64,000 nt of DNA from a virus (IMGVR_UViG_641228504_000001); one strand, 5' to 3'; positions 1 to 44,771 are shown, counted from the first letter of the stretch. Numbers and translations are program-made. Notes: generated from the sequence alone by a model not told the origin.

Positions 1-425
1 ATGGCCCGCGGGCCTCGAGGTTCGCCGTCCTCGAGTAACTCCACGACCATGCCGTCGGATACGACAAGGCCGAGCAGCTGCGCCAGATCCGCCCCGGACC
101 GTGCGGCCTGCAGGGTCCACCCGGAGGGCAACCCTTCCTGATCTTCAGCGGTGGCTAGACCCATAATCGTCGTGCCGGCAAGCTCCTTGATCGTCACGGA
201 CGTAGCACCGTCGGCGAGGCGGTTCGGGGCAAGCGTGGTGACGAGGCTACCGAGGCGCACCTCGGTGAAACCCCACGAGGTGTGGCCGCGGGAGACAGGC
301 CGTTTAAGGGTGGCGTCTTCGAGGCGTCCGAGCAGGGTGAGGAACCGGTCAAGCACCGCGAGCGCGCGCCGCGCATCTGCCGATCCCTCCGGACCCGGCA
401 GCGTGACCCGCAGTTCCGTGCTCAT
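1..425 (-). CDS. Hypothetical protein, truncated at window edge (MSTELRVTLPGPEGSADARR...)
   Basis: ATG at 425; I translated it manually and it stays open to position 3. Absent from the ORF track because it has no stop in the window. Confidence 0.55.
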   Translation of the reverse strand, partial: MSTELRVTLPGPEGSADARRALAVLDRFLTLLGRLEDATLKRPVSRGHTSWGFTEVRLGSLVTTLAPNRLADGATSVTIKELAGTTIMGLATAEDQEGLPSGWTLQAARSGADLAQLLGLVVSDGMVVELLEDGEPRGPRA

Positions 426-520
426 ACCACCCACCATGTCACAGTCGTCCGACCCGGGGTACCGGCATAACGGCCTACTGTGCCCCGAGGTCACGCGCAG
501 CTCGGAGCGGAAAAACGACA

Positions 521-550
521 GCCCCGCCTGGCCTCACGGCCGGGCGGGGC
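521..550. terminator. Intrinsic terminator hairpin
   Basis: GCCCCGCCTGGCC-TCAC-GGCCGGGCGGGGC after the small-ORF operon; homolog at 9533-9568. Confidence 0.7.
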
Positions 551-608
551 GCTTCGTCGTGTCTGGGGTCAGCGAAGCACAACGCCCCACATGGACCAAC
601 GGCCGGAC

Positions 609-827
609 TCAGGCCCGACCCCGCCGCCGCGGTCGACGTCGACCCGGCCCACACCCCGGCTCCTGACACCCGCAGTACCCACCCGCAAGCCGTAGTAGCT
701 CCTGGTCCCCGGCGCACTGGTGCGTCTTCACCACGATCCCGGGGGCGCAACCCAGGCAGCGCAGCGCCGGATCGACGGCCGGTCCTGGGGGCGGCGCCGG
801 CGGGCTGTCGCCGGTCGCTCCGGTCAC
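609..827 (-). CDS. Small Cys-rich protein (CLGC..HQC..CGC..C), 72 aa
   Basis: GTG overlaps upstream TGA (GTGA); homolog of 9276-9515. Confidence 0.5.
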   Translation of the reverse strand: MTGATGDSPPAPPPGPAVDPALRCLGCAPGIVVKTHQCAGDQELLRLAGGYCGCQEPGCGPGRRRPRRRGRA

Positions 828-943
828 CAGTGACCTTCGTTCAGCCGGTCCGGATCCGGCGGAGGGTTGGGCGGACCATCCTTCCGGATCCGTTGGGGTA
901 GCGGTGGTGGTGGCGGATTGCAACGCCAGGACCGGACACGCAT
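824..943 (-). CDS. Pro-rich microprotein, 39 aa (MRVRSWRCNPPPPPLPQRIRK...HW)
   Basis: AGGGGA RBS 9 nt upstream; GTGA coupling to next ORF; homolog 9142-9279 differs by synonymous changes and an in-frame indel. Confidence 0.5.
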   Translation of the reverse strand: MRVRSWRCNPPPPPLPQRIRKDGPPNPPPDPDRLNEGHW

Positions 944-996
944 GACAGGACATCCCCTTCCAGTTATCGGACGAGTGAGGGTCGTGGCAGTCGGGC

Positions 997-1227
997 TTAC
1001 TGCCGACCCAGGACGTGCTCAGGTGGCGCCCAATCGCCCTGACCCACCGAGGTCAGGTAGTCGTAGGCGTAGCCGGTGGGCCTGCAGGGCCACTCGGATC
1101 CGCACATCGGGCATCGGTCCACACGTGGCCAGTGTTCGACGATGATCCTGCGGGCGGACCGGATCATCCGGTTGCGTAGCTGCGCTGGCGACAGGCCAAT
1201 CGGAGTAGGCCGGACGTGGGCGGCCAT
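997..1227 (-). CDS. Small protein with CPxC..WPC putative Zn-binding motif, 76 aa
   Basis: Conserved with 8864-9097; start overlaps upstream stop. Confidence 0.65.
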   Translation of the reverse strand: MAAHVRPTPIGLSPAQLRNRMIRSARRIIVEHWPRVDRCPMCGSEWPCRPTGYAYDYLTSVGQGDWAPPEHVLGRQ

Positions 1228-1409
1228 CACCGGGAGCAGGCCCGCTGCCGGGCCAACCGGGTCATCAACGGCCGCGTATCCAGGATCACCGTCGGCTGGT
1301 CGCGCAGCGGCCGGTAGGCACCGGCCCGCCCGGCGTACACGGTGGCGGGACCGGTGGCGTCCAGCCGCGCGGAACGACGGCGTCGGCGTTGGCGGAACAG
1401 CCGGAACAT
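1227..1409 (-). CDS. Arg-rich microprotein, 60 aa (MFRLFRQRRRRR...)
   Basis: GGAGG RBS; near-identical homolog at 8688-8867. Confidence 0.6.
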   Translation of the reverse strand: MFRLFRQRRRRRSARLDATGPATVYAGRAGAYRPLRDQPTVILDTRPLMTRLARQRACSR

Positions 1410-1559
1410 GCGCTGCGCACCTCCTACGAGTCGGAGTGCCGCCCGGCCAGGCATCGGGGGAAGCCAGCCAGGCGACACACACGCAACGTAGGTGCGGCGA
1501 AGGCGCACAGTAGCCACGAAGTGTGGTGGTACCCCGCGGTGTGGTACCCGCTTGTCAGA

Positions 1560-2768
1560 TCAGGCGACCCCGACCTGATCGGCCAGACTCCGAAGCTCTG
1601 GCCGGGTCGTCGGAGTCTCCCGAGCCAGAAGCTCTCGCAGCAACGCCCGCATAGTCAGGCTTAGCCGGGAATCCTCGGGTGACTCCTGGTGTGCGCGGCT
1701 CAACATGAGCGAGGCGGCCACGTCGTCGCGTTGCGTGGCGTACCCACGCGCCAGGTGCAGCAGGTGCGAGTGCCGGCGCTCGATGCTCGGCGATCCAGTC
1801 ACGTCGACCCGCTCGCCCAACTTGAGCGCCTCACCATGCCGCGACAGCTCCAGCGCCACCGCAGCCCGGTGAATCCCGACGTTGATCGGGCCGAAAAACA
1901 GCCAGTGGTGAGACGTTTCCCCGACGACGGCAGCGAGCTTTTCCGCCTCGCTCAGGACCACTGTGGTGTCCCGGTCGTTGTGCAGCCGAGCCGCCTGCAC
2001 AGACAGCAGCAGATTGAGCCCGCCGAGGACAGACAGCCGCACCGGGTCCTGGTCATCGATTGCGCGTAGCTCAGCGATAGCGGACCGGCATAGCTCAGCG
2101 GACTCCTCCGCGTGGCCGCGCATCGACAGCGCCTGGCCGAGGTTCCACGCCCCGGCGCCGCGGTAGATCGGATCGTCGGCGTCACGTGCAGCGGCCAGCG
2201 CCCGATCGGCGGCCACGAGCGCCACGTCATGTGCGCCGATGCGCTTGGCGTAGGAGCGCACCAGGAGATACAGGTCGGCGGAGATCCGCAGCGCGTCACG
2301 CCGTGAGTCGCCGTCGGTGCTGGCGACGGCAGCGGTAACGGCCTGGACGAGGCCGGGCAGGGCAGGGCCGGTGTAGGTGTAACGCTGCCGCGACTGGTGC
2401 CATGTCGTCCACGCCAACCGCACCGCGGCGCGTAGCTCGGGCAGCGGCATCAGCTCGACCTCTGGCGGGCCGTAGGCGTGGATGGCGGCGCGGAGCGGTC
2501 CCACTAACTCGTGGTCCACCGGGTCATCCGGGAGATGACCGACGGGGAGTCCGGTGATGCGGTACAGGTCGCGTACCCGCAGGATACGAGCGATGTCGAC
2601 CCAGTCGGAGAGGGTATTAACGGATCGTTCCCCTGACTCCCACTTACGCCAGGCGGAAACGGTGACGCCCTTGAGTTGGGCACATACTTCTTGTGTCAGG
2701 CCGGCTCGGCGGCGGTAGAGCTTGATGCGTTGGCCGGGGGTCATCCCCGGCTCGATGACGGGGTCCAT
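1560..2768 (-). CDS. XRE-family HTH regulator with helical TPR-like C-terminal region, 402 aa
   Basis: N-terminal HTH (GLTQE..A..GV..S.W.KWESGER); C-terminal F.P.NV..H...ALEL..R.....AR family pattern; GGAGAAGG RBS. Confidence 0.85.
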   Translation of the reverse strand: MDPVIEPGMTPGQRIKLYRRRAGLTQEVCAQLKGVTVSAWRKWESGERSVNTLSDWVDIARILRVRDLYRITGLPVGHLPDDPVDHELVGPLRAAIHAYGPPEVELMPLPELRAAVRLAWTTWHQSRQRYTYTGPALPGLVQAVTAAVASTDGDSRRDALRISADLYLLVRSYAKRIGAHDVALVAADRALAAARDADDPIYRGAGAWNLGQALSMRGHAEESAELCRSAIAELRAIDDQDPVRLSVLGGLNLLLSVQAARLHNDRDTTVVLSEAEKLAAVVGETSHHWLFFGPINVGIHRAAVALELSRHGEALKLGERVDVTGSPSIERRHSHLLHLARGYATQRDDVAASLMLSRAHQESPEDSRLSLTMRALLRELLARETPTTRPELRSLADQVGVA

Positions 2769-3021
2769 AGCCTTCTCCAGGTAGAGGACTGGGCGGCGGG
2801 CCGCCAGCCTCTACCCCGGCGGGCCGCCACAGTCGACGGTACTCCCCGCCCACCAGGTCACGCCGTCAGTAACAGACCGTGTTGTATTGTGGATACCTCG
2901 CGCGCAATAACACGGCCCCGCAATTCTGGCTAGCCTTCAAACCGGTCATTGCTCCGGCCGGAGATACGTGTCGGACATTTAACAAGACACAGAAGACGCG
3001 AATCCCATTCGTGGATATTGC

Positions 3022-3049
3022 TTGTCGATTATCAATCTGGTACTAAACT
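3022..3049 (+). promoter_or_regulatory. Putative housekeeping-sigma promoter TTGTCG-N16-TAAACT
   Basis: In the AT-rich intergenic block; identical in inverted orientation in the prophage homolog. Confidence 0.4.
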
Positions 3050-3222
3050 TGATCCGGCCAAGTGATCATCCGGTGACGGGCCGTCACAACCCAACGTGAC
3101 CCGTTGCGCACCATCACCCCACCCCCGCCCACGACACGCGGCGAGAAGTCTTCCCATTTCATTCGTACACGTGTTCTACTCGCACGCTCCGTTAGGCACC
3201 CGAGGAGGTCATCCACTCCGCC

Positions 3223-3831
3223 ATGCGCAGCCAGCCCACCCGCCACCCATCCCCACCCCTACGCGCCGCGATCTACGGACCCACGCGGCAGATCGGACGC
3301 TGGCAGCCAACCTGCACCGCCTGGTGCACAGACCGCGGCTACGACCTGACGTCCATCGTCGACGAAGACGCCGCCGCCACCCGCTGGAGCGACCTGCTCG
3401 TCATGATGGCCGACGGCGACGTCGACGTGGTCGTGGTGGCCACCCTTGCGGACCTGCCGCCAAAAAGGATGGCCAGAGTCGAGACCATCAACCGGGGGCA
3501 GCCAGCGCGACGGCCAGGACTACGCGCCGTGGTCTACGGCCCGCCCTGGGACGTCAAACGGTGGGGGCGCCGGGGCATGAAGTGGTGTCAGCAGGCGGAG
3601 CTGGACGTTCGCCGCCTCATCGTCGAGACGCCCGCCGCGAGCGAGTGGCCCGGCGTGGTCGAGGGAATGGCCGACGGAACGGTCGACGTGGTGGTGATGG
3701 GCAGTTGGGGTCATCTACCCCCGCATCGCCTGCCACGAATCGAGGTAGCAGGCACCACACCGGCAGGGCTACTGCAACCCCGCCTGGCCCGCTGGTACCC
3801 GATTACAGGTCACTTGCGTCCGTCCGGATAG
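3223..3831 (+). CDS. Protein with two tandem degenerate resolvase-like (serine recombinase fold) domains, 202 aa
   Basis: Internal duplication RAAIYGP...MADGDVDVVVV / RAVVYGP...MADGTVDVVVM; YxRVS catalytic motif absent. Confidence 0.7.
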   Translation: MRSQPTRHPSPPLRAAIYGPTRQIGRWQPTCTAWCTDRGYDLTSIVDEDAAATRWSDLLVMMADGDVDVVVVATLADLPPKRMARVETINRGQPARRPGLRAVVYGPPWDVKRWGRRGMKWCQQAELDVRRLIVETPAASEWPGVVEGMADGTVDVVVMGSWGHLPPHRLPRIEVAGTTPAGLLQPRLARWYPITGHLRPSG

Positions 3832-4098
3832 GACCCTCGGTGGTCGGAGGATGCGGACTATCGGTCAAAGACCCGCTTGACTGGTGCAGGCCTTTTGATC
3901 TAGTAGCACTTTCGGTCACCTCGAACAATACCCAACCGCCAGTTTTACGCACGGTCACTAGAAATGATCGCCGAGTCGGAGTCTGATCAGAGGCCCACCC
4001 CGAAACGCAGAGGCTGGTGGGGATCGAATGGGGAGGGAATAGCTGTGGAGGACCGCAAGCGCGTCACTCACAGTAAGAGCAATGTAGCGCACACCTGT

Positions 4099-4482
4099 GT
4101 GACGGTCGCAGCCATCGCCGGACTCATCCTCTGCGCGAGGTCCCTCCGCCGCACCCTCCAGACCGTCGAGGCTGAAGTCTCAGCCATGCGAACGGACTTT
4201 ACCGACGTGCTGACCATCGCCGATGCTGACGCCGAGCTGCGCCAGCGACGCAACGGCACGTACGTCGGCGCCGACGTCACTCCACTCGTACCAGCGGTTA
4301 GAAGCGGTCCGCCTGGGAGACCCGCCGAGCGGCCCGCTGCGCCCGCTCAACCTGCGCCGACCGGCCATACCGGCGAGGCATCTCCGCCGAGGACCAACCG
4401 AACAGTGCCATCGCGTCGCCCTCGGAACCGCCGGCGTCAGCCCACAGGTGCGCGGCGAGGTGCCGCAGCTTATGAGGGTTGA
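4099..4482 (+). CDS. Hypothetical protein with hydrophobic N-terminus; 3' part overlaps recombinase antisense
   Basis: GTG after the conserved leader; true end uncertain. Confidence 0.35.
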   Translation: MTVAAIAGLILCARSLRRTLQTVEAEVSAMRTDFTDVLTIADADAELRQRRNGTYVGADVTPLVPAVRSGPPGRPAERPAAPAQPAPTGHTGEASPPRTNRTVPSRRPRNRRRQPTGARRGAAAYEG

Positions 4483-5188
4483 TCTTCGGGATCTTCGCCT
4501 CCTCGCAACGGCGTTCCAGCATCTGATACGCACCGGAAGACGTGAGCGCCCCTCCCCGCTCGGCCAGCCACAGCGCCTCAAGTCTGCCCGCATCTCGGTG
4601 CTTGGACCTCACGCGTAGGTAACGATCGATTGCCTGCCCCGTCTTCGCACCGAAGGGCACAGAACGAATCTTGTCGCCCTTGCCATGAAGGGTGACAAGG
4701 TCGTGGCGCATGTCCAGGGCGTCGAGGGTGATACCCACCATCTCTGAGACCCTGGGGGACCCCGCCTCACACCACAACCGGATCATCGCTGTATCGCGAC
4801 GCTCGGTAAAGCCTTTGCCGCCGCATGCCTTAAGCAGCAGCGCCATATGGTCAGCGGGGACAATGGGGATGGGTTTGCTGGTGACAGCGGGCTCGGCGAT
4901 CCGGGCCATCGGGTTACTGTCGACGATCTCCTCCACCTCGCACCACCGATAGAACGCTCGTAGGTTGCGAAACTTCTTGTGCACCGTGGCGCTGGAGTTG
5001 CCGATCTCCTGAGCATCGATTAGGAACTCCTCCACGTCGACGCGAGTAACCTCAGCCAGGTCACGCCCGGAGCAGAACCCGGCGAGTTGGCGCAGGGTGG
5101 TGACGTAGCTGTCGACGGTCTCGGGAGAGGTACGGCGGGCGCGGTGGTACCGCTCATAGGAGGCGATGTGCGTCTCGTTGGCATCCAT
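4298..5188 (-). CDS. Tyrosine recombinase/integrase (XerC-like), 296 aa
   Basis: Catalytic R (PRVSEM), K (GKGDK), HKLRH, GW (Trp for His), Y (RRYG); N-terminal core-binding domain. Confidence 0.92.
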   Translation of the reverse strand: MDANETHIASYERYHRARRTSPETVDSYVTTLRQLAGFCSGRDLAEVTRVDVEEFLIDAQEIGNSSATVHKKFRNLRAFYRWCEVEEIVDSNPMARIAEPAVTSKPIPIVPADHMALLLKACGGKGFTERRDTAMIRLWCEAGSPRVSEMVGITLDALDMRHDLVTLHGKGDKIRSVPFGAKTGQAIDRYLRVRSKHRDAGRLEALWLAERGGALTSSGAYQMLERRCEEAKIPKINPHKLRHLAAHLWADAGGSEGDAMALFGWSSAEMPRRYGRSAQVERAQRAARRVSQADRF

Positions 5189-5297
5189 GGCGGGGCCTCC
5201 CTGGTCGCTACAGCGCTAAGTCAGGGAGGAAAGAATACTCTCCTCCACCATCGCTGTGGCGACCCCCGCCGCCCGATTCGATCTCTATTTGTGCTGG

Positions 5298-6767: not shown

Positions 6768-7349
6768 GGCGGAGTGGATGACCTCCTCGGATGCCTGGCG
6801 GGAGCGTGCGAGTAGAACACATGTACGAATGAAATGGGAAGAGTTCTCCCGGTGTGTCGTGGGCGGGGGTGGGGTGGTGGTGCGCAACGGGTCACGTTGG
6901 GTTGTGACGGCCCGTCACCGGATGATCACTTGGCCGGATCAAGTTTAGTACCAGATTGATAATCGACAAGCAATATCCACGAATGGGATTCGCATGATCC
7001 GTGTCTTGTTAAATGTCCGACACGTATCTCCGGTCGACGGCGTGACCGATTTAGAGGCTAGCCAGAATTGCTGCCTCATGTTATTGCGCGCGAAGTATCC
7101 ACAATACAACACGGTCTGTTACTGACGGCGTGACGTGGTGGGCGGGGAGTACCGTCGACTGTGGCGGCCTGCCGGGGGTCGATGCCGGCGGCAGCGCCTG
7201 GATCGGGGCGACAAAGTAGGGGCCGGATGTGCGGTCCGACCCCTTGCGCGCCCCGCCACGGTAGCAGGAGACATCGACGCGACGTACTGTGCCAATGGAC
7301 GCCGGTTTCGTGCGGGAACCGGCACTTCACCCTCGTGCGGGAGGGCACC

Positions 7350-8543
7350 ATGAGTGACTACATCGGATTGCGCGTCGCTCGGTGGCGCGACATCAGCGGC
7401 ATGACCCAACACGACCTGGCCAGCGCTGTCGGTGTGACTCCGGCCTACATCAGCATGCTGGAGAACGGGCGCCGGCCGGTGGCCAAACGGTCACTGCTTA
7501 TCGCGCTGGCCAGCGCGCTGCAGGTCAGCATCACCGATCTGACCGGTCAACCCGCGACGCCCCGCAGCTCCGACGACCTCGCGATCTACGGTGCCGTCCC
7601 TGCCCTACGCGGCGCGCTCGACGACGAACCCGAGGCCGGCCCGCTGCCGTCGCTGGCCGACGTCGCCTCCCGCACGGACGCGGTCATGTCCGCGCGGATG
7701 GCCTGCGACTACCAGAGCCTGGCCCGGCTCCTGCCCCCGCTGGTCGCTGATACCCGCCAGCTCGCCAACTCCGGAGACGAGCACGCGTTGGCGCTGTTCG
7801 TGCGGACCGCGGTCACCGCAGCATTGGCGATCAAGCCGTTTGGGTACGTCGATCTGAGCGCGCGGTACGCAGAGCGCGCCGACGTCGCCGCCGATCGCCT
7901 CGGTAGGCAAATCGAGTCGGCGGCGGCGGCGTTCGCGCTCGCACAGACCGCGCTGGCATCCGGCACCACCGGTGGGCGCCGCCGGTCGCTGATGACCGCG
8001 GTCGCCGCTGCCGAACGTCTCGGTGACGACGGTGACGACGCCGCCCTCACGTGGTACGGCATGCTGCACCTGCACGCCGCCCTGTCGGCGGCCTCACTCG
8101 ACATCGGCGACTCCGACAGTCATCTCGCCGAGGCGGGTGCCGCGGCTCGTCGCGCGGGATCGGATCCGTGGCGGATGGAGTTCACCTCCACAAACGTCGA
8201 CATCTGGCGTATCGGGGTGGCGGTTGAGAACGGCGAGCCCGAGCGGGCTCCCGAGTACGCCCGCCAGGTCGACCGGTCCCGTATCCGCACCGCGAACCGC
8301 CGCGCCCGGATGCACATCGACACGGGGCGCGGCTGGTACGCCGCCGGCGACCAGGACCGCGCCATCCTGTCGTGGCTGGAGGCTGACGAGGCGTCACCGG
8401 CGGAGCTGCGGTCCCGGCCGAGTGTGCGGGAGTTGGTCGGACAGATGATCCGTGACTCTCGTCGACGCGGCTCCGATGAGCTGCGGGACCTGGCGACACG
8501 GGTTGGTGTCGACCCGCTCGATCCCGACCACGACCAGACTTAA
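7350..8543 (+). CDS. XRE-family HTH regulator with TPR-like C-terminal region, 397 aa
   Basis: GMTQHDLA..VGVT..YISMLENGRR HTH; GGAGGG RBS before ATG 7350. Confidence 0.85.
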   Translation: MSDYIGLRVARWRDISGMTQHDLASAVGVTPAYISMLENGRRPVAKRSLLIALASALQVSITDLTGQPATPRSSDDLAIYGAVPALRGALDDEPEAGPLPSLADVASRTDAVMSARMACDYQSLARLLPPLVADTRQLANSGDEHALALFVRTAVTAALAIKPFGYVDLSARYAERADVAADRLGRQIESAAAAFALAQTALASGTTGGRRRSLMTAVAAAERLGDDGDDAALTWYGMLHLHAALSAASLDIGDSDSHLAEAGAAARRAGSDPWRMEFTSTNVDIWRIGVAVENGEPERAPEYARQVDRSRIRTANRRARMHIDTGRGWYAAGDQDRAILSWLEADEASPAELRSRPSVRELVGQMIRDSRRRGSDELRDLATRVGVDPLDPDHDQT

Positions 8544-8687
8544 CTAGCAGTTACTCTCCCGATACCGCCGTCGGTCGATAGTCCGTGTGACGGCGGTTTC
8601 CGGTCTTCCCTCCCCGTAACTGGGTAGGGGCGGTCGCAGCCAGAGAGCCGGCCGTCTCGCCACCATCGAGGGTGAGGGAGTACGCGC

Positions 8688-8867
8688 ATGTTCCGGCTGT
8701 TCCGCAAACGCCGCCGCCGTTCCGGGCGGCTGGATGCGACCGGCCCGGCCACGGTGTACGCCGGGCGGGCCGGCGCCTACCGGCCGCTACGCGATCAGCC
8801 GACGGTGATCCTTGATACGCGGCCGTTGATGACCCGGTTGGCCCGGCAGCGGGCCTGCTCCCGGTGA
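8688..8867 (+). CDS. Arg-rich microprotein, 59 aa
   Basis: GAGGGAG RBS; homolog 1227-1409; below the ORF-track cutoff. Confidence 0.6.
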   Translation: MFRLFRKRRRRSGRLDATGPATVYAGRAGAYRPLRDQPTVILDTRPLMTRLARQRACSR

Positions 8868-9097
8868 TGGCCACCCACGCCCGGCCTACCCCGATCGGCC
8901 TGTCGCCGGCGCAGCTGCGTAACCGGATGATCGTGTCGGCCCGGCGGATCATCGTCGAGCACTGGCCCCGGGTGGACCGGTGCCCGGTGTGCGGATCCAC
9001 CTGGCCGTGCACGCCCACCGGCTACGCCTACGACTACCTGGCCTCGGTGGGGCAGGGCGATTGGGCGCCACCTGAGCAGGTCCTGGGCCGGCGGTAG
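8864..9097 (+). CDS. Small CPxC..WPC putative Zn-binding protein
   Basis: GTGATG overlap with upstream stop; homolog 997-1227. Confidence 0.65.
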   Translation: MMATHARPTPIGLSPAQLRNRMIVSARRIIVEHWPRVDRCPVCGSTWPCTPTGYAYDYLASVGQGDWAPPEQVLGRR

Positions 9098-9141
9098 TCC
9101 CGGCCCTCGTTCATCCGACAACTGGAAGGGGATGGCCTGTC

Positions 9142-9279
9142 ATGCGTGTCCGGTCCTGGCGTTGCAATCCGCCGCCACCACCGCTACCCCAACGGATCCG
9201 GAAGGATCACCAGCCGACCACGACATCGAACCCGACACCGAATCCGGATCCGGACCGGCTGAACGGGGGCCACTGGTGA
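9142..9279 (+). CDS. Pro-rich microprotein, 45 aa
   Basis: RBS spacing and substitution pattern favour this frame over ATG 9132. Confidence 0.5.
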   Translation: MRVRSWRCNPPPPPLPQRIRKDHQPTTTSNPTPNPDPDRLNGGHW

Positions 9280-9515
9280 CCGGGACAACCGGCGACAGCC
9301 CGCCGGCGCCGCCCCCAGGACCGGCCGTCGATCCGGCGCTGCGCTGCCTGGGTTGCGCCCCCGGGATCGTGGTCAAGACGCACCAGTGCGCCGGGGACCA
9401 GGAACTACTACGGCCTGCCGGTGGGTACTGCGGCTGCCAGGAACCGGGGTGTGGGCCGGGTCGACGTCGGCCACAGCGGCGTCGCCGGCTGAGTCCGGCC
9501 GCTGACGAACTCTGA
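9276..9515 (+). CDS. Small Cys-rich protein, 79 aa
   Basis: GTGA overlap; homolog 609-827. Confidence 0.5.
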   Translation: MTGTTGDSPPAPPPGPAVDPALRCLGCAPGIVVKTHQCAGDQELLRPAGGYCGCQEPGCGPGRRRPQRRRRLSPAADEL

Positions 9516-9532
9516 CCGACCGCAGACACGAC

Positions 9533-9568
9533 AACGCCCCGCCCGGCCGTGAGGCCAGGCGGGGCGTT
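9533..9568. terminator. Bidirectional terminator hairpin
   Basis: 16-bp stem with one mismatch and GTGA loop, between the + operon and mini-array 1. Confidence 0.75.
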
Positions 9569-9572
9569 TGTG

Positions 9573-9645
9573 CGACCCAACCCCACATACGTGGGGAGCA
9601 TGTCGCGAAGCGACAGTGGGTCATCCCCGCCTATGCGGGGACCAA
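9573..9645 (-). CRISPR. Mini-array 1: two type I-E-like 29-nt repeats with a 15-nt spacer
   Basis: TTGGT-CCCCGC-ATAG-GCGGGG-ATGACCCA / CTGTCGCTTCGCGAC / ATGCT-CCCCAC-GTAT-GTGGGG-TTGGGTCG; 5+6+4+6+8 geometry; first repeat 19/29 identical to the E. coli I-E repeat. Confidence 0.75.
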
Positions 9646-9652
9646 TGAACGG

Positions 9653-9681
9653 AGCGTACCCCCAAGCGTCTCGGCTGTCAG
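9653..9681 (-). promoter_or_regulatory. Putative promoter of mini-array 1, CTGACA-N17-TACGCT
   Basis: Predicted TSS near 9646, at the first base of the upstream repeat. Confidence 0.6.
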
Positions 9682-9728
9682 GCCCCGCCGGGGGCGGGTC
9701 GTTGTGGCAGGTCCGCACCACAGCCGTT

Positions 9729-9769
9729 CTATAGCATGCTTGACGTGTAGCTATAGCAGGCTATAGGCT
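9729..9769 (+). promoter_or_regulatory. Promoter TTGACG-N18-TAGGCT with three CTATAG palindromic operator candidates
   Basis: CTATAG at 9729, 9751 and 9761, overlapping the -35/-10 region. Confidence 0.6.
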
Positions 9770-9797
9770 GTTGGTATCCGAGCCACAGGAGGAAGCG

Positions 9798-10202
9798 ATG
9801 ACCACCGGAACCAGCATCGACGATCTCGCCCGGACCCTCGCCGACCATCACGGCATTGACACCCACGCTGCTGCCGTCGACACGGTGCGGGTGCATGTGG
9901 ATGAGATTCGCGACGACCCGGAGCTGTGGGACACCGCGACCCGAACCCTCACTTCGGCCGGCGTCGAGGTGATCACCCGTGCAGTTGACGCGTCGTACAG
10001 TGTCGGAGCCGTCGCCACAGCGGCTGCGCAGGTGCTGGTGGAGCTGGAAGAGGTGACCAGCGAGATCGGCCGCCTGACCGCCCGCCGCGAAGTGCTGGTG
10101 CGGACGGCAATGCGGCGGCATGAGCTGCGGCGAGACGATATCGCCGCAGCCGCCGGCGTGACGCCCGCCCGGCTCTACCAGATCCGCGACGGACGCCGCT
10201 GA
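9798..10202 (+). CDS. Two-domain protein: unknown N-terminus plus C-terminal HTH, 134 aa
   Basis: AGGAGG RBS; RDDIAAAAGVTPARLYQI HTH. Confidence 0.8.
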   Translation: MTTGTSIDDLARTLADHHGIDTHAAAVDTVRVHVDEIRDDPELWDTATRTLTSAGVEVITRAVDASYSVGAVATAAAQVLVELEEVTSEIGRLTARREVLVRTAMRRHELRRDDIAAAAGVTPARLYQIRDGRR

Positions 10203-10243
10203 GCCACTCATCACGTAAACAACTACACCTTAGGGTTCAGATT

Positions 10244-10675
10244 ATGGGTGACAAGATTATGGACAACAAATTCGACATCGAAGACGCCTCCGGTCGCCTA
10301 GGTGAGCTGGTTTGGGCTGCGGGGGAAGGGACGGACATTATCCTCACTCGCGATGGTGTACCTGCCGCCCGTCTGACGGCCACCGAAACCGAATATCTAG
10401 ACGGTGACGAGTACGAGAAACTCCTCCGGGATATCCATCTGTACAGCCGCGCGATGGCCGCGTTCGCGGTGGCTGAACATCCCAGCGGATACGACTTCGC
10501 GCGGGTCATCAACGCCCTCTGGCAGCGCATCCGTTTCAAGCTAGATGAGGTTGCGGCGGTGCCCCCTGGGGAGGTTCGCGAGCCGTTCGCCGACGAGGCC
10601 CGGGGTGTCCGGGAGGTGGCCCGTGCGGACGCCGAGGCAATCGCGGCTAGGCCATCAGCGCGGTGGGCCGACTGA
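10244..10675 (+). CDS. Phd/YefM antitoxin-like domain fused to unknown C-terminal domain, 143 aa
   Basis: IEDASGRLGELVWAAGEGTDIILTRDGVPAARL matches the Phd/YefM pattern; TAGGGT -10 lies 7 nt before ATG (leaderless). Confidence 0.7.
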   Translation: MGDKIMDNKFDIEDASGRLGELVWAAGEGTDIILTRDGVPAARLTATETEYLDGDEYEKLLRDIHLYSRAMAAFAVAEHPSGYDFARVINALWQRIRFKLDEVAAVPPGEVREPFADEARGVREVARADAEAIAARPSARWAD

Positions 10676-10682
10676 ACACAGA

Positions 10683-10719
10683 GACAGCCAGACCCCCGAC
10701 ATTCGGGGGTCTGGCTGTC
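10683..10719. terminator. Perfect 17-bp bidirectional hairpin
   Basis: GACAGCCAGACCCCCGA-CAT-TCGGGGGTCTGGCTGTC. Confidence 0.85.
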
Positions 10720-10720
10720 A

Positions 10721-10808
10721 CGATTAACCCACATGCATGGAGAGGTGTCTCCTATAGGAGACGGTATCCGGCCTACGACCGTGACACCTCCACATACGTG
10801 GAGAGGTG
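10721..10808 (-). CRISPR. Mini-array 2: I-E-like 29-nt repeat, 32-nt spacer, degenerate 27-nt repeat
   Basis: CACCT-CTCCAC-GTAT-GTGGAG-GTGTCACG / GTCGTAGGCCGGATACCGTCTCCTATAGGAGA / CACCTCTCCATGCATGTGGGTTAATCG. Confidence 0.75.
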
Positions 10809-23024: not shown

Positions 23025-24566
23025 TCACCAGACCCCCACCGGGTCCTGCCTCTTGCTGGTGCCCACGTCGGCGCGGGCGTAGTACGCCCATCGGGCCTCG
23101 GTGACCGCGACCAGGCCGGTGATGTCGACCGCCCGGTCCTGCCGCGCCCACGCAACCGCATCGCCGGTGCGCCTGGTCTTCGCCGTCGCCACCGCAGCGT
23201 CGAGCTGGGCGGCCGGCACGTACCGCAGGTCGGCCTGCCGGGTCGCGTCGAGCATCTGCCCACACGCGGCGGCCATGTCGGCGCCACCAAGCACCACCAG
23301 ATCGCCGCGGCGAGGTTCCTTGTCCTCGTCACGGTCCTCGGGCCGTTCGATACCCCGGGCCCGCAGGTCCTCCCTCAGAGAGGCGTGGGTGCCTCGGGCC
23401 ATTCCGACCGCGACCGGGTCAAGCGCCGACCGGAACTCGGCGATCTTGTCGACGAGCCCGGCGACCGGACCGTAGTAGACCAGCTGCAGATGCCCGAGGC
23501 CGTCAGCGCGATGCCCGTACAGTCCAATGGCCGCCCAGTCCCGCTCCGGGGCGATGTCAACAGCGATCGCCACAACGCCCTCGCGCCGCGATTCCGGGTC
23601 GGCCAGCTGCCGCCAGGTCGCCTGGTCGATTGCCGCCCCGGTCTCCAACTCCGAATACACGCCGAGGCGTTCGCGCAGGAACTGCGCGACACCAGTAGCG
23701 CGAACCTCACGCAGAATCGACGACTCGAAGATTCGCACCCCGAACGCCCGGTTGGCCTCGGCCACCGCGGCGAACAACCGGCCGCGCAGCGCCCGGCCCT
23801 CAGTGGTGTCCTCGGCCTCGTCCGACAACGCCTTGTTCGCCTCGACCAGCGTAAACAGGTCGTCGTAGCGGCCGGACGCCGACCACTCGTAGTAGACCAG
23901 ACCACGCGTGCCGCGCCGGCCGCGTGTGACCACCTCGCGCAGCACCTCGGAGCCGCCGAGCGGCGCCGAGGACATGTACCACACCTGCGGGTTCGCCGCC
24001 GCGGACGTCGCGTACACGATCGCCGCTACCTGCTCGGCCGTCAACGCGAACGCCTCGTCGAGGAACAGCGGACTCACGCCGGCGAAACCCCGACCCGAAC
24101 CGCCGGACCGGGCCAGGAACGCCAGGGTCTGCCCGGTTTTGAGAATGATCTCCGTCGAATGGGTCGACGACCGGATCGTGCGAACCCGCTTACGCAGATG
24201 ATCGAAGTTGTCGAAGTAGCCGCGCATCCGCACGAAGCCCTGATGCGCGGTCTTAAACTCGTGCGCCGTCCAGACAATCAGCGGCTCCTTGACCAGCAGC
24301 AAGCCGGCCAGCGCCCGAACCTCAAGGTCGACGCCCTTACCATTCTGCCGCGGCTCGAGGTCGGCGACCTCGCTCGCAAGCCACTTACCGTCAGCGCCCC
24401 GGGCGAGCCCATCGTGGATAATCGCTGCCTGGCCCTCATCGAGCCGGACACCGACGGTGGCCGCCAGGTCGACGGCCTCCGGCCCCCAGCTACCGGCCGC
24501 CCCCTGCGGCACGGTCCGGAACCGGGGCGTCTGTGATCCGATCGGCACCGCGCCGGCTGAGTTCAT
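23025..24566 (-). CDS. Terminase large subunit
   Basis: PRQNGK Walker A, LFLDEA Walker B, AIAVDIAP nuclease motif. Confidence 0.92.
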   Translation of the reverse strand: MNSAGAVPIGSQTPRFRTVPQGAAGSWGPEAVDLAATVGVRLDEGQAAIIHDGLARGADGKWLASEVADLEPRQNGKGVDLEVRALAGLLLVKEPLIVWTAHEFKTAHQGFVRMRGYFDNFDHLRKRVRTIRSSTHSTEIILKTGQTLAFLARSGGSGRGFAGVSPLFLDEAFALTAEQVAAIVYATSAAANPQVWYMSSAPLGGSEVLREVVTRGRRGTRGLVYYEWSASGRYDDLFTLVEANKALSDEAEDTTEGRALRGRLFAAVAEANRAFGVRIFESSILREVRATGVAQFLRERLGVYSELETGAAIDQATWRQLADPESRREGVVAIAVDIAPERDWAAIGLYGHRADGLGHLQLVYYGPVAGLVDKIAEFRSALDPVAVGMARGTHASLREDLRARGIERPEDRDEDKEPRRGDLVVLGGADMAAACGQMLDATRQADLRYVPAAQLDAAVATAKTRRTGDAVAWARQDRAVDITGLVAVTEARWAYYARADVGTSKRQDPVGVW

Positions 24567-24786
24567 CGATCGGATCAGCCTCCCCCGGCACCCTGTCGGC
24601 CATCGTGCGCAACTCGGCAAGCACGACCCGGATCTCCTTGGCTACAGCAGCGCAATCGCGGGCCCCGCAACCGGCGTCGAGGGTGTCAGCCAAGTTCCGG
24701 GCGACCGCGGCCAAGGCGCTATCCCGCACCGCCGGCGGCATCTCACCTAGGTCTGCCTCAAGGGCATCACGAACACTCATTGTCAC
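24490..24786 (-). CDS. Terminase small subunit (probable)
   Basis: Position; A..LA..LD...A.VAKE.R..L.EL...DPIDEL pattern. Confidence 0.65.
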   Translation of the reverse strand: MTMSVRDALEADLGEMPPAVRDSALAAVARNLADTLDAGCGARDCAAVAKEIRVVLAELRTMADRVPGEADPIDELSRRGADRITDAPVPDRAAGGGR

Positions 24787-30019: not shown

Positions 30020-30291
30020 ATGACGCATGACGCATGACGCGTCTTCTCCGGTTGGGCTGCCATGTGCGTGTGCATGCGTGCGCGCGCGTTCGAGGGGAAC
30101 GGGAGGAAACGCGTCATGCGTCATGATCATGCTTGTGTCGTAGGCTAGTCGTGCTGTCTGAGCTGCGGAAACTTGCCCTGACAAGATCATGACGCATGCG
30201 TCATTCGATGACGCGTTTTGAGCGACGGGCGAGGCGATCATGGTCACCACCCGCCCTGCTCGTCGCGAGTCGATGACGCATCCGATGACGC
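30020..30291. repeat. Iteron-like ATGACGC cluster; probable replication origin
   Basis: 7 direct (30020, 30027, 30034, 30189, 30208, 30273, 30285) and 3 inverted (30111, 30118, 30198) copies at the primase 3' end. Confidence 0.65.
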
Positions 30292-32868
30292 ATCCTCGTC
30301 GATCAAGAGCGACAGATTGCCGTACAAGCGGGCGGCGGGAGTGCGCAACCGCAGCACCTTGAAACGCTTCTCCAGCGCGGTGCCGAGGGCCTTGGCGCTG
30401 ACCGGTGTCTCACCTTCGGCGTAGCAGAACTGCTCGTACGCCTCGCGTACCTTCGCGGTCTTGATGGTGACGTGCTCGCCGCCTCCGAGGTGGCAGCACT
30501 CCTGCACGAATTTCGCGACGGAGTCCTGATCGTGGGCGTACTCGGCCGTCGCGGCCTTCACGCTGTCGGGCTCCTGGAGGCCACTGGCGTGGTACTGCGT
30601 GGTGCCAGCCGTGATCCAGGCGAGCAGCGCCGGCCCGTGGTCGCGGACGAGGATGCCCTGGAGGTCGTCGACGATCTTCTCCTCGGGTACCTCGTGGTTG
30701 AAGGGGATTAGTCGCAGGCGCCGCCAGAACGAGCGCCCGCCGGAGCGCACAGCGGGCTGGTGGTTGCCCATCAGCCAGAGCTGGTGGGTGGGCGTGAAGG
30801 TGAAGTGGTCTTGGCGCATGAAGCGGGCGGTGAGGCTGTCCCCGCCGGTGAGCATCTTGACTTTCGCCTCGTCGAAGCGGTCGTCTTCGTTGACCTCGGA
30901 GCAGATGACCATGCGGGAGCCGGCGAGGCGGGCGATCTCGGTTTCGTGGCCGGGGTGGGACTGGGCCATCAGGAAGCCGACGGGAGCGGTGGTGGCGTAG
31001 TCGCCGAGCACTCCGGCGAGTGCCTCAAGGAAGACGCCTTTGCCGTTGCCGCCGGAGCCGTGACAGAACGGCAGCACATGCGGACCGACGTGTCCAACGA
31101 CGGAGTAGCCGACGAGCCGCCGCAAGTAGGTGATGAGTTCATCGTTGTCGCCGAACGTGTCGGCGAGGAATTCGTTCCATCGGCCCGGGTCGGCGGTGAG
31201 GTCGACGGGGACCGCGGTGCTACGGGTGTGCAGGGCGGCGGGCTCAGCCGCCCGGACGGTGCCGGTACGTAGGTCGACAATGCCGGCGGGGGTGTTGAGT
31301 TCCCACGCGTTGGCGTCGAGGTCGTCGAAGTGGGCGACGACGTGCGGGTTGTGCTGGGCAAGGCGGGCGATGCCGGTGACACCGGCGGCGGACATGGCTC
31401 GCTTGCGGAAGGTGGCCCATTCCTTGTCGTTGGGAATCCGGTCAGCGAGGGCCAGGAGGAGTTCACGGTGCTGCTCTGCGTCGTCCCACGTCCAGCGGTG
31501 CCCGTCCCACATGAGCCAGCGGGCACGCTGCGGGCAGTAGCGGAGGACTTCGCCGTGGTTGGCTACGAGGGCGCGGGCCATACCCGCCTCGGTGGGGCCG
31601 AACTGCTCGGGATTCGGTGACGGTTCAGCGAGTACCCGCGCGGCGGTGCCATCGACAGCGGCGAGGACGCGGGCGGCTTGTCCGGGTGGGAGTAGGTCGG
31701 CGATGGCGGCGCGTTGCTCGGCGGCCGGGTCGGTTTTCTCGGTGGGGGTGCCGTAGCCGAGGCGGGCGAGGTGGCGGGTAGCGGCCTTGTGGTCGCCGCC
31801 GTGGTGGAGCACGGCGTAGGCGCCGGGCTTGGTGTACACCTGGCCTTGTTCGAATTCGGTGGCGTCGGTGAACACTTTGAGGCGGTCGCGGGTCGGGTCG
31901 TGTCCAGTGGTGGCGGAGATACCGGGGTCGGTTTTGCCGGGGCGGCGCCATTCGCAGTAGGAGCCGGGGGTGCCTTTGGTGAGGGTCCAGTCGGCGCCGC
32001 CAAGTAGCAGTGGGTCGTCCCAGCCGGCGCGGGCCTCGAAGTGGTCGTTGGGGGTGATGTGTCCGGCGGGTCGTACCACCTCCAGGCGGCGGGGTGCCGG
32101 CGGCGGGCCGGGTTGCGGGTCGGGGTGGCGGCTGATGGCGTCGCGCAGGCCGGCGTGGAGTTGGTCGAGGCTGTACCGCTCGGGGCGGGCGTCGATGATG
32201 CGACAGGGGCGCTCCAGGCGGGCCTTGCGGTTGATGGTTCCGGGGATGCGTAGCACGCGGGCGAGGTCGCCGACGCCGGTGCCGTAGTGCCAGCCGAGGG
32301 CGGCGGCTGACCGGCCGATGACGGCCTGCCAGCGGCCGGTCAGCTGTTCCAGGTCGGAGAGGTTGTCGTTGGTGATGTCGGTGTGCTGGTCGAGCAGCCA
32401 CCATGGGTAGAGTCCGCCGCCGGAGTGCACCCACAGCGTGGGGTCGGGTAGCCCGGCCTCGGTGATGATGTGTCGGGCGTCGACCTCGGTGGGGGGCAGG
32501 GGCCGGGTGATGTGCCCATGACCTTTGGTGCAGTCGTCGGGACACACGTCGTGTTTGTGGCCGGGGCCGGCGATGTCGAGGTCGGCCCAGAGGCCGGGCA
32601 GGGCGAGGCTGTCGGCGGCGCCGCCCCGACCTCCCTTGCCGGGCTGGCCCCTGAGGGTGGTGGCGCGCAGGTAGATGCCCTCCGGTTGGGCTTTGTCGAG
32701 CTCGGTGACGTAGTCGGTGGCCTGGTCGTAGTCGGTGAAGGCGCGGCCGGACCAGTTACCTGTGGATGAGATGTGGACGAGGCCGGGGGTGTTGACGTAG
32801 AGCACGTCGAGCCACGTCCTGACCATGGTGTGGTCGAGGCCGGTGGCCGTCTGCTCGGTGCTCGTCAT
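30244..32868 (-). CDS. Primase-helicase (RepB-like primase plus P4/D5 SF3 helicase), 874 aa
   Basis: LWADLD and VHSGGGLY primase motifs; GSGGNGKG Walker A; KMLTGGD.LTARF. Confidence 0.9.
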   Translation of the reverse strand: MTSTEQTATGLDHTMVRTWLDVLYVNTPGLVHISSTGNWSGRAFTDYDQATDYVTELDKAQPEGIYLRATTLRGQPGKGGRGGAADSLALPGLWADLDIAGPGHKHDVCPDDCTKGHGHITRPLPPTEVDARHIITEAGLPDPTLWVHSGGGLYPWWLLDQHTDITNDNLSDLEQLTGRWQAVIGRSAAALGWHYGTGVGDLARVLRIPGTINRKARLERPCRIIDARPERYSLDQLHAGLRDAISRHPDPQPGPPPAPRRLEVVRPAGHITPNDHFEARAGWDDPLLLGGADWTLTKGTPGSYCEWRRPGKTDPGISATTGHDPTRDRLKVFTDATEFEQGQVYTKPGAYAVLHHGGDHKAATRHLARLGYGTPTEKTDPAAEQRAAIADLLPPGQAARVLAAVDGTAARVLAEPSPNPEQFGPTEAGMARALVANHGEVLRYCPQRARWLMWDGHRWTWDDAEQHRELLLALADRIPNDKEWATFRKRAMSAAGVTGIARLAQHNPHVVAHFDDLDANAWELNTPAGIVDLRTGTVRAAEPAALHTRSTAVPVDLTADPGRWNEFLADTFGDNDELITYLRRLVGYSVVGHVGPHVLPFCHGSGGNGKGVFLEALAGVLGDYATTAPVGFLMAQSHPGHETEIARLAGSRMVICSEVNEDDRFDEAKVKMLTGGDSLTARFMRQDHFTFTPTHQLWLMGNHQPAVRSGGRSFWRRLRLIPFNHEVPEEKIVDDLQGILVRDHGPALLAWITAGTTQYHASGLQEPDSVKAATAEYAHDQDSVAKFVQECCHLGGGEHVTIKTAKVREAYEQFCYAEGETPVSAKALGTALEKRFKVLRLRTPAARLYGNLSLLIDEDASSDASSTRDEQGGW

Positions 32869-35208: not shown

Positions 35209-35480
35209 CGCCCCGCCCCCTCACGGCCGGCGAGCCGCTCCCGCGCGGCCACCAGACCCACCCGCAGCCGCTGGGAGGTGCTGATCGCCTGGTCCCGGTC
35301 GGCGCAGGCCTGCCGCAGGTCGGCGGACAGACCGCGGGCCAGGTCCCGCCACTGGGCGGCCTGCCGGGTCCGCCGCTCATAGGCGGCCGTCGTGGTGTCC
35401 AGCTCGTCCTTCAGGCGGGCCCGCTCGGCATCCGCCTTATCCAGCTCGGCGGTCAGCTCCCGCACCATGTCGTCAGTCAT
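35205..35480 (-). CDS. Coiled-coil hypothetical, 91 aa
   Basis: ATG overlaps the pentapeptide gene stop. Confidence 0.55.
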   Translation of the reverse strand: MTDDMVRELTAELDKADAERARLKDELDTTTAAYERRTRQAAQWRDLARGLSADLRQACADRDQAISTSQRLRVGLVAARERLAGREGAGR

Positions 35481-36100
35481 CACAGGTCCGCGCCCCACAG
35501 ATTCGCGTCCGTCAGGTCCGCGTCCGTCAGGTCCGCGTCCGTCAGGTCCGCGCCCGTCAGGTCCGCGCCCGACAGGCCCGCGCCCCGCAGATTTGCGCCC
35601 CGCAGATTTGCGCCCGACAGGTCCGCGTCCCACAGGCCCGCGCCCCGCAGATTTGCGCCCGACAGGTCCGCGCCCCGCAGATTTGCGCCCCACAGGTCCG
35701 CGTCCCGCAGGTTCGCGCCGCAGCCGTGCTCACGGACCAGACGCGCGCCATCCACGATGTCCACGACGTACGCCCGCCTCAGCCGCCACGTATCCCCGCA
35801 GGCGTCGGAGAGCAGGTCAGCGGTCGACCACGCGCACAGCAGCAGAGTCACCGCCGGCACACAGCCGGAGGCCATCGCCCTCCAGGTCCGCGCCAGACAG
35901 ATTCCGTCCCCGGGTGAGGTCGGGGACTCGCTGGTGTTGTCGGTGTCGATCGGCCCCGGCGCGTGAGCCCACTGGCTGGGCCCAGGCCACCGGTACGCGT
36001 GCTGCGAGCGCAGATCGGCGGTGACGGTGCGGATCCCCCACCGGTCGCAGCCGGCAGGCAGAGCGCGGTCGGCAGTCAGGACATCAAGCAAGCTCTTCAC
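35480..36100 (-). CDS. Pentapeptide-repeat protein with N-terminal domain, 206 aa
   Basis: C-terminal run of A(D/N/G)Lxx repeats; GTG overlaps upstream TGA. Confidence 0.85.
35482..35720. repeat. Imperfect 15-bp tandem repeats encoding pentapeptides
   Basis: e.g. CAGGTCCGCGTCCGT tandem copies. Confidence 0.85.
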
Positions 36101-44698: not shown

Positions 44699-44771
44699 CG
44701 ACCCAACCCCACATACGTGGGGAGCATGTCGCGAAGCGACAGTGGGTCATCCCCGCCTATGCGGGGACCAA
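44699..44771 (-). CRISPR. Mini-array 1 (copy 2)
   Basis: Copy of 9573-9645. Confidence 0.75.

Follow-up and report, generated by a model that had tools for sequence, protein, structure and literature searches.

A prophage-borne mimic of a type I-E CRISPR array with a conserved 15-nt pseudo-spacer, a candidate crRNA-like anti-CRISPR RNA

The virus sequence IMGVR_UViG_641228504_000001, analysed here as one stretch of 64,000 nucleotides (the window), carries at positions 9573 to 9681 a small cassette, mini-array 1, in which two repeats of the type I-E CRISPR (short palindromic repeats, clustered and regularly interspaced) kind flank an insert of 15 nt. An initial annotation had described it as a transcription unit with its own promoter and a hairpin spacer, making either a decoy that titrates Cas proteins or a guide fit for repression only. 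Its sequences and coordinates for mini-array 1 are all correct on the minus strand, and the parts are as follows.

9653-9681, minus strand: candidate promoter, with a -35 element CTGACA at 9681-9676, a 17-nt gap and a -10 element TACGCT at 9658-9653
A9646, minus strand: start predicted from the sequence only, 7 nt after the -10 element
9645-9617, minus strand: R1, a type I-E repeat mimic of 29 nt, TTGGTCCCCGCATAGGCGGGGATGACCCA
9616-9602, minus strand: pseudo-spacer (psiS) of 15 nt, CTGTCGCTTCGCGAC, which can form a 5-6-bp hairpin
9601-9573, minus strand: R2, the second repeat mimic, 29 nt, ATGCTCCCCACGTATGTGGGGTTGGGTCG
about 9567-9534, minus strand: terminator hairpin predicted from the fold, with a 16-bp stem and the loop UCAC
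44699-44807, minus strand: a second, identical copy of the whole cassette

R1 is built of 5 nt, a 6-bp stem CCCCGC/GCGGGG, the 4-nt loop ATAG and an 8-nt handle, ATGACCCA. R2 belongs to the CCCCAC/GTGGGG type of I-E repeat and has the loop GTAT and an atypical tail, TTGGGTCG, that is able to pair with the handle of R1. Both follow the layout 5 + 6 + 4 + 6 + 8, which is the exact 29-nt I-E geometry, and they agree with each other at 18/29 positions (62%), the stem differing by a compensatory exchange of a G-C for an A-U pair. The terminator hairpin is common to mini-array 1 and the convergent plus-strand gene at 9132-9515. The second copy of the cassette exists because the prophage that carries it is duplicated in tandem, and the hairpins recur at +35126. 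A conventional CRISPR array this is not: the repeats are 62% alike, the insert has 15 nt, and that insert is the same in five prophages. The rule by which SRUFinder recognises an RNA anti-CRISPR (Racr) is that no second repeat lies within about 100 bp at at least 90% identity (PMC10651486); under it, the cassette does not count as a mini-array, its second unit being 15 nt off and 62% identical, yet it is not solitary either.

Against the E. coli K-12 repeat in NC_000913, R1 scores 19/29, the figure first given for it, and the resemblance to actinobacterial repeats is closer. R1 matches at 23/29 the repeats of genuine I-E arrays with a 61-nt period, sharing with them the entire stem and the ATGACCC handle; one of these arrays adjoins the annotated I-E genes casA-cas2e on a Streptomyces globosus plasmid. 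R2 in turn is 23/29 identical to the repeats of CCCCAC-type arrays. In reversed orientation the scores are only 14-19/29, with 16-19/29 for R1, and therefore the minus strand is the repeat-sense strand. In both R1 and R2, then, the 29-nt unit, the stem, the loop, the handle and the similarity to real arrays that mark a type I-E repeat mimic are present, and the resemblance exceeds chance. Rfam yielded no family at the gathering score, with CRISPR-DR matches that were weak and fell mostly on the terminator. The absence of a significant Rfam CRISPR-DR match is one of the points that could be turned in favour of an origin outside CRISPR altogether, in which the locus would consist of stacked intergenic terminators or attenuators, or of a palindromic protein operator (TGTCGC-TTC-GCGACA). 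The region does lie between convergent and divergent genes, and the plus strand folds nearly as well as the minus-strand transcript. Such an origin is nevertheless the least probable of the explanations considered here, for it has to accommodate the exact I-E geometry twice over, the 23/29 agreement with true repeats, which extends to the whole handle and is confined to one orientation, and the fact that the same pattern recovers real arrays together with dozens of viral mini-arrays.

The nearest relatives of the cassette are found in four IMG/VR proviruses of Salinispora arenicola, those of strains CNH-941, CNS-744 and CNY-237 (assigned via the IMG genome ids in the supplement of a Salinispora CRISPR survey) and that of a further isolate, 2561511107, which is absent from the survey's table. 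Type I-E systems are common in Salinispora, occurring in 49 of 75 strains, and CNH-941 carries two of them (PMC4223832). Including that of the window, there are five distinct versions of the cassette, and they align without gaps over R1, guide and R2. Variation is confined to 6 of the 67 core columns: the R1 loop accounts for two, the R2 loop and the leader for one each, and positions 9 and 14 of the guide make up the rest. No version differs in the stems, in the handle or in guide positions 1-8, which correspond to the I-E seed. The guide alleles have T or G at position 9 and A or G at position 14, for a consensus of CTGTCGCT(T/G)CGCG(A/G)C, and the change at position 14 converts a U-A pair into U.G in the hairpin of the minus-strand RNA, where the plus strand would get a C.A mismatch. 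As far as sequence comparison goes, the pattern fits a guide.

This conservation is set in proviruses that are otherwise mosaic, their lysis cassette and immunity genes being 84-96% identical and the intervening stretch rebuilt; the cassette is divergent from a helix-turn-helix (HTH) gene in the window and two relatives, and from a gene for a repressor-like domain in the other two. Another conceivable origin is a decayed mini-array of the conventional sort, whose former full spacer against a rival phage has been truncated and lost its function. It would have a ready source, as the relatives and other viral contigs hold mini-arrays with 32-34-nt spacers and the same pairing of an R1 (CCCCGC) with an R2 (CCCCAC), but the purifying pattern is strong across mosaic relatives with replaced flanks, the -10 spacing and the terminator are kept, and stems and handle show no decay. 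We regard this origin as very improbable.

The elements of the dedicated promoter that had been proposed for mini-array 1, CTGACA and TACGCT, are indeed at the expected sites; a generic sigma-70 promoter scan made no call there. The miss is expected because the candidate promoter is of the TANNNT actinomycete type, and a terminator scan likewise did not list the 9534-9567 hairpin because it has no clear T run. Across the five proviruses the -10 hexamer reads TACGCT, TACCCT or TACAAT and always stands 11 nt from TCCCC; beyond about -15 the sequence is unrelated in CNY-237 and CNS-744, yet the -10 is retained. That a dedicated promoter fires at the first repeat base is thus a prediction, and the conserved -10 spacing is what speaks for it.

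For the predicted transcript, 9648-9532, folding gives -80 kcal/mol (z = -7.4). The predicted fold contains the R1 hairpin, a helix between GACCCA of the handle and UGGGUC of the R2 tail, and the terminator; enclosed by the GACCCA/UGGGUC helix are a 6-bp guide hairpin and the hairpin of R2. By our reading of the alignment, the helix is kept in four of the five versions and broken in one relative. As for the hairpin spacer of the initial annotation, the 15-mer can pair with itself, but a hairpin as good is formed by 3% of random 18-mers from the same GC-rich phage (p about 0.03), so that it is only mildly unusual. It may be a by-product of a coding-derived sequence.

The behaviour of short guides has been studied in E. 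coli, where crRNAs (CRISPR RNAs) whose spacers are as short as 14 nt are processed and build Cascades in which the number of Cas7 subunits is reduced (Kuznedelov et al. 2016, PMC5159557). Cascades with 14-nt spacers recognise targets well enough to prime adaptation, while interference needs more than 20 nt (PMC5159557). The background on which mini-array 1 had been interpreted, that shortened spacers give Cas7-poor and poorly interfering Cascades, is therefore correct (PMC5159557).

It is tempting to propose that with mini-array 1 the prophage encodes a crRNA-like anti-CRISPR RNA acting through the host's type I-E Cas proteins, as a guide and at the same time by titration. This is the explanation we favour, if tentatively and with something short of even confidence. 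A short transcript would start at or just before R1 and stop at the terminator, and the host Cas6e would cleave it behind each repeat hairpin to leave a 44-nt RNA made of the 8-nt handle AUGACCCA, the 15-nt guide and the 21-nt hairpin of R2. Fifteen guide bases would call for a shortened Cascade with about three Cas7 subunits, which would find a target flanked by a protospacer-adjacent motif (PAM) without licensing Cas3. We suggest that the guide would pair with the E-LSLR(D/G)-V codons that lie some 70-100 nt from the start of cas8e, which is first among the Cascade genes, with GAG, the codon for Glu, serving as PAM, and that the small Cascade would form a roadblock at the start of cas8e, lowering expression of the Cascade operon with no recruitment of Cas3. 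Each transcript would also occupy two Cas6e molecules and other Cas subunits. Whether by roadblock or by titration, the prophage, its progeny and incoming relatives would be shielded from I-E immunity.

The PAMs proficient for interference in E. coli I-E systems are AAG, ATG, AGG and GAG. Read in frame, the guide of mini-array 1 spells L-S-L-R-D, and actinobacterial Cas8e proteins have, about 30 residues from the N-terminus, a conserved E-L-S-L-(R/L)-x-V motif whose Glu codon GAG supplies the PAM. Three actinobacterial I-E operons had been fetched without regard to the guide, from a Streptomyces plasmid, from a Thermobifida-like bacterium and from a metagenomic locus of 70% G+C whose repeats end in a GTGATCC handle. 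The top guide match in the three lies at nt 85 of cas8e, gag CTGTCGCTGCTCGAC, with 2 mismatches and GAG in front. A second, distantly related cas8e retains GAG and the 8-nt seed at the homologous site, and the 11-mer GAGCTGTCGCT has no other occurrence in the roughly 1 Mb of GC-rich sequence compared. The in-frame motif was also the best guide match within the first 240 nt in six of eight further plasmid cas8e genes, preceded by GAG in five and by GAA in one.

The protein motif is widespread. It lies at residues 21-52 in 112 of 120 Cas8e homologues, among which ELSLREV was counted 36 times, ELSLLEV 24, ELSLRQV 9, ELSLRGV 3, ELSLRDV 2 and DLSLRDV once. Since the variants include both LSLRD and LSLRG, both guide alleles (…CGC GAC for R-D, …CGC GGC for R-G) encode existing versions. 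A metagenomic cas8e with ELSLRDV, gag CTGTCGCTGCGCGAC, matches the window guide at 14/15, its sole mismatch being the Leu wobble base that also varies between the guide alleles; a Streptomyces cas8e with ELSLRGV is 14/15 identical to the CNS-744 allele, but has GAA in front. Guide positions 9 and 14 fall on the Leu wobble base and on the variable codon of the motif. As controls, a site with at most 2 mismatches and a functional PAM anywhere in the three operons was obtained for 2% of random phage 15-mers, and 0.5% of random phage 15-mers encode a pentapeptide found within the first 90 residues of the 120 Cas8e proteins. Ten other viral pseudo-spacers (the RepA type, a second unit in the window called mini-array 2, and eight from other viral contigs) gave no comparable match in cas loci.

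If the guide has no DNA target at all, the repeat hairpins and a self-locked spacer would draw Cas6e, and with it Cas5 and Cas7, into dead-end particles, as a pure decoy of the Racr kind. We consider this somewhat unlikely, though several observations fit it: the compact fold presents two hairpins of the Cas6e type, with the handle paired to the R2 tail and the 15-mer to itself; R1 and R2 imitate two I-E repeat subtypes, as if meant for both I-E systems of some S. arenicola strains; validated I-E Racrs exist (PMC10651486); no exact target was found in the window or in viral contigs; and linkers shorter still (6-7 and 13 nt) separate I-E repeats in other viral contigs. What a decoy leaves unexplained is why positions 1-8 do not vary, why variation falls at the wobble position and the variable codon of the cas8e motif, and why both guide variants encode Cas8e peptides. 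In addition, its hairpin is not very unusual (p about 0.03) and its handle/tail helix is broken in one relative. Both of the functions first put forward for mini-array 1, Racr-like titration and a repression-only guide, are still candidates, and the evidence favours the repression guide, directed at an ELSLR(D/G) cas8e site with a GAG PAM.

Could the guide be regulatory and yet be aimed elsewhere? A small Cascade might be sent to a host or phage promoter, such as that of another defence system or of the lysis-lysogeny switch. Host crRNA-like RNAs (crlRNAs) that control other defence genes are reported (bioRxiv 10.1101/2024.12.27.630466), and the cassette does sit in the immunity/moron region beside HTH or ribbon-helix-helix regulators. 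We find this improbable: in the 35-kb prophage and the 5.3-kb flank the 15-mer matches nothing beyond what chance would give, and the sole non-random matches found are in cas8e. A phage target was likewise sought and not found, the exact matches of the 15-mer in IMG/VR being 36 chance ones with no shared gene or PAM. Conversely, the spacers of arrays in the fetched cas loci have no match to the prophage.

Several points weigh against a cas8e-directed guide RNA. Among Logan RNA-seq contigs, two of the three runs of the organism have none over 9571-9794, and the third has one contig, 9583-10692; RNAs of 44-110 nt are lost from such libraries anyway. Searches with Cas7e homologues and with the Cas8e N-terminus ended outside Salinispora and did not reach the host's own cas8e or repeats. 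The Cas7e walk led from the Streptomyces plasmid I-E locus via Cas7e homologues, 50% representatives and cluster names, and the searches arrived at Streptomyces, Pseudonocardiaceae, Thermobifida-like bacteria, Nocardia, Bifidobacterium or metagenomes. A string of Leu-Ser-Leu-Arg codons is common in GC-rich DNA and accounts for part of the target match. The later cas8e examples were picked by motif, so that their DNA identity comes in part from codon bias. R1 and R2 belong to different repeat subtypes, and one Cas6e may be unable to process both. The guide, at 15 nt, is below that of any validated Cracr, as the viral crRNA-like RNAs with short pseudo-spacers are called (21-24 nt in I-E; median 19 nt in I-F). 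A 14-nt guide still triggers primed adaptation in E. coli, which is awkward for a self-target (PMC5159557). Finally, published Cracrs target promoters and copy the host CreR, and no host CreR-like element with handle and guide was found in 185,579 species genomes with a pattern that fixed the last base of the handle; two matches to the handle and guide start from that scan were chance ones in mis-binned contigs of metagenome-assembled genomes.

How, then, does mini-array 1 relate to what has been described? Racrs are solitary phage repeat units that inhibit CRISPR-Cas, with RacrIE1 and RacrIE2 as validated I-E examples (Camara-Wilpert et al., Nature 2023, PMC10651486). Like them, it is a phage repeat mimic in an accessory/anti-defence region, and it would form a small transcription unit of its own, to judge from the conserved -10 and the strong terminator hairpin, the RNA contigs being uninformative for an RNA of 44-110 nt; binding of Cas6 and other Cas subunits would be expected of it too. 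It differs from Racrs in having two repeat units and a defined, guide-like 15-nt insert, and its conservation pattern and cas8e match point to targeting rather than titration alone.

Closer still are the Cracrs, which compete for Cas proteins and redirect them to repress cas/creT promoters (Liu et al., bioRxiv 10.1101/2024.10.29.618823). A Salmonella prophage I-E Cracr array has 24- and 21-nt guides against the casA promoter, and I-F Cracrs, with a median guide of 19 nt, form Cas7-poor complexes (bioRxiv 10.1101/2024.10.29.618823). In common with Cracrs, mini-array 1 sits on a virus, outside any CRISPR-cas locus and among capsid, terminase and integrase genes, is Cas-less, and carries between repeat-like flanks a pseudo-spacer below normal length (15 nt vs 32-33 nt in normal viral units), with Cas6e processing predicted. 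Predicted here and described there are the redirection of Cascade to silence the Cascade operon (casA/cas8e), the competition with crRNAs and the Cas7-poor complexes. The differences lie in the guide (15 nt vs 21-24 nt for I-E and a median of 19 nt for I-F), in the predicted target, which is not the casA promoter but 5′ coding sequence of cas8e matched at 13-14/15 with a GAG PAM supplied by a codon (in other actinobacteria), and in the two I-E repeat subtypes, the actinomycete host and the lack of a cognate host CreR in the species genomes scanned.

Host crlRNAs of the CreR/CreA kind are degenerate mini-arrays with which Cascade represses cas or toxin promoters by partial complementarity. Mini-array 1 shares with them the succession of repeat-like element, short guide and repeat-like element and the idea of regulation without cleavage; it lies on a prophage far from a cas locus and would act against the interest of the host. 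Viral mini-CRISPR arrays with full-length spacers against competing viruses have reportedly been described (Faure et al. 2019; Medvedeva et al. 2019), and these too are one-spacer arrays on viruses that depend on the host's Cas proteins; the prophage relatives carry 33-nt units as well. The guide of mini-array 1, by contrast, lacks the length that interference requires, does not change from relative to relative apart from its two variable positions, and matches no virus. The truncated-spacer crRNAs of E. coli, with 14-20 nt, fewer Cas7 subunits and recognition without interference (PMC5159557), are laboratory constructs that still prime adaptation, whereas mini-array 1 is a natural and conserved phage gene. 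Viral crRNA mimics with short guides having been described in 2023-2026, mini-array 1 is not new as a kind. It stands apart by the shortness of its guide, by its mixture of repeat subtypes and by its actinomycete host; should the lead hold, a target in a coding motif with a codon PAM would be a fourth difference. The class assigned to it in the initial annotation is right: an I-E crRNA mimic on a prophage, without cas genes, predicted to be self-transcribed and having a guide of very small length.

A bolder proposal is that phages of GC-rich actinomycetes have copied an ultra-short guide of 15 nt from the cas8e coding motif E-LSLR-D/G-V, with the Glu codon as PAM, so that one RNA could silence many divergent I-E Cascade operons with no cleavage. 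This we think doubtful. The targeting logic would be new, in that a conserved cas8e coding motif with a built-in PAM would take the place of a strain-specific promoter, and it would explain how one fixed guide serves mosaic phages across many strains. Guide alleles (…CGCGAC, …CGCGGC) would then track host cas8e alleles, and crRNA mimicry of a broad-spectrum, coding-sequence-directed sort would stand apart from the promoter- or CreR-derived Cracrs described so far; it would also offer a compact natural template for CRISPRi-only guides in Streptomyces, Salinispora and other hosts with I-E systems. Recognition of RNA anti-CRISPRs and of viral crRNA-like regulators dates only from 2023-2026, and they have been validated mainly in Proteobacteria and Firmicutes. 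Mini-array 1 would extend the class to marine actinomycetes rich in I-E systems and prophages, and would mark a natural lower limit of guide length, 15 nt with about three Cas7; at that size the Cascade of E. coli is able to recognise its target but no longer interferes.

The phage genome that encodes the cassette measures 35,126 bp (G+C of the sequence, 68%) and is present as two tandem copies at an attachment (att) site, window positions 5298-28874 being identical to 40424-64000. The features of the prophage unit and of the left flank are these.

5298-40423 and 40424-64000: the two units, with a tandem period of 35,126 bp
7161-8543, prophage unit: XRE regulator, 460 residues
19319-20932, prophage unit: major head protein
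23025-24641, prophage unit: large terminase
30244-32868, prophage unit: primase-helicase
38770-40386, prophage unit: tyrosine integrase
1560-2768, minus strand, left flank: XRE regulator, 402 residues
4298-5188, minus strand, left flank: XerC/D-like recombinase

The integrase, regulator, head, terminase and primase genes, together with the tandem repeat, show that this is a 35-kb temperate phage integrated twice; the perfect duplicate is either a real tandem lysogen or an assembly effect. Both prophage junctions start with the 3′ part of a tRNA-like sequence (att core tggtggggcgggcgggacttgaacccgcgacc...), and ARAGORN found no complete tRNA in the 64-kb window. No Cse1 or Cas7 genes were found in the related proviruses, and a megablast search of GenBank phages with 20 kb of the window gave no match. 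In length, though not in content, an IMG/VR provirus found in S. arenicola CNP-193 coincides exactly with the 35,126-bp prophage. Sequencing runs that contain the flank come from mock communities and from isolates of a single coded organism. The left flank, window 1-5297, resembles a second integrative element; within it, a stretch at about 521-1423 is about 88-90% identical to prophage 8676-9568, and RNA and DNA contigs break at this paralogy.

Three neighbours of mini-array 1 deserve mention.

9798-10202, plus strand: HTH gene, 134 residues with a C-terminal HTH (phrog_686, E = 5e-6), present in the gene calls of 10 public contigs
10721-10808, minus strand: mini-array 2, a degenerate CTCCAC-type repeat, a 32-33-nt spacer, a degenerate repeat and then a terminator
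9132-9515, plus strand: Cys-rich open reading frame (ORF) of 127 residues

The HTH protein is an Aca-like candidate; three CTATAG motifs lie at about 9729-9776 in the promoter region of its gene, which is flanked by crRNA-mimic cassettes in the relatives too. In one RNA-seq run, a contig over this gene stops at 9795, joined to Illumina adapter 3 nt before the ATG at 9798; its end may be the 5′ end of a leaderless mRNA or a processing site, despite a strong Shine-Dalgarno sequence upstream. Mini-array 2 has a homologue in the CNH-941 provirus, in which the repeats are of the canonical CCCCAC type and the spacer measures 33 nt. The same provirus holds a promoter-driven unit of four repeats with two 33-nt spacers, two repeat subtypes and the handles GTGATCCG and GTGTCACG, and a further unit whose spacer begins with the same 17 nt (TCGCTAAGCACTCGGTG) as the first 33-nt spacer and then differs, as expected if only the PAM-proximal part matters. 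The units of this phage family (L084 2700-2880 and 4890-5010; L085 2768-2900; window 10721-10808, minus strand) have spacers for which no target appeared in the cas loci compared. With these extra crRNA-like units around it, the HTH gene stands in a small island of CRISPR mimicry within a variable accessory region. The Cys-rich ORF, which converges on the terminator of mini-array 1, is absent from public gene calls and has no Pfam or PHROG match; it is probably a real gene, since the CNY-237 provirus conserves it with indels that keep the frame.

Across IMG/VR, unique direct repeat pairs of the CCCCGC/ATGA type number 128 at a spacing of 32-33 nt, about 17 at 19-24 nt, two at 13 nt and two at 6-7 nt. 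I-E mimics with short guides are thus widespread among viral contigs, 15 nt being at the lower edge. An apparent 6-nt step-down of the short spacer lengths was dropped, the 26-nt class consisting of inverted-repeat pairs that match both strands. Promoter-driven, I-E-like units of two repeats with inserts of 13-21 nt were seen in the IMG/VR contigs L088, L091, L093, L096, L107, L113, L102, L108, L139 and L186, among others. Two-repeat units of this sort often adjoin a divergent HTH gene, and several show complementarity between the 5′ handle and either part of the insert or the stretch that precedes R2. In a further IMG/VR locus, L003, the array has three guides, of about 21 nt. A scan of metagenomes for R1 handle, gap and R2 returned mostly chance coding matches and two unrelated mini-arrays; it did not return the known mock-community copies of the prophage, which that collection therefore lacks. 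The repeat of L228/L229, the metagenomic I-E locus of 70% G+C, is GTGCTCCCCGCTCACGCGGGGGTGATCC(C/G), with the same handle as the RepA-type mimic of Salinispora proviruses, and thus authentic I-E systems with a RepA-type handle exist. Lastly, at window 35453-35764 (and 35869-35900) a 15-nt unit (AGGTCCGCGCCCGTC-like) is repeated in tandem about 14-15 times within a minus-strand ORF, which would give a five-residue protein repeat.

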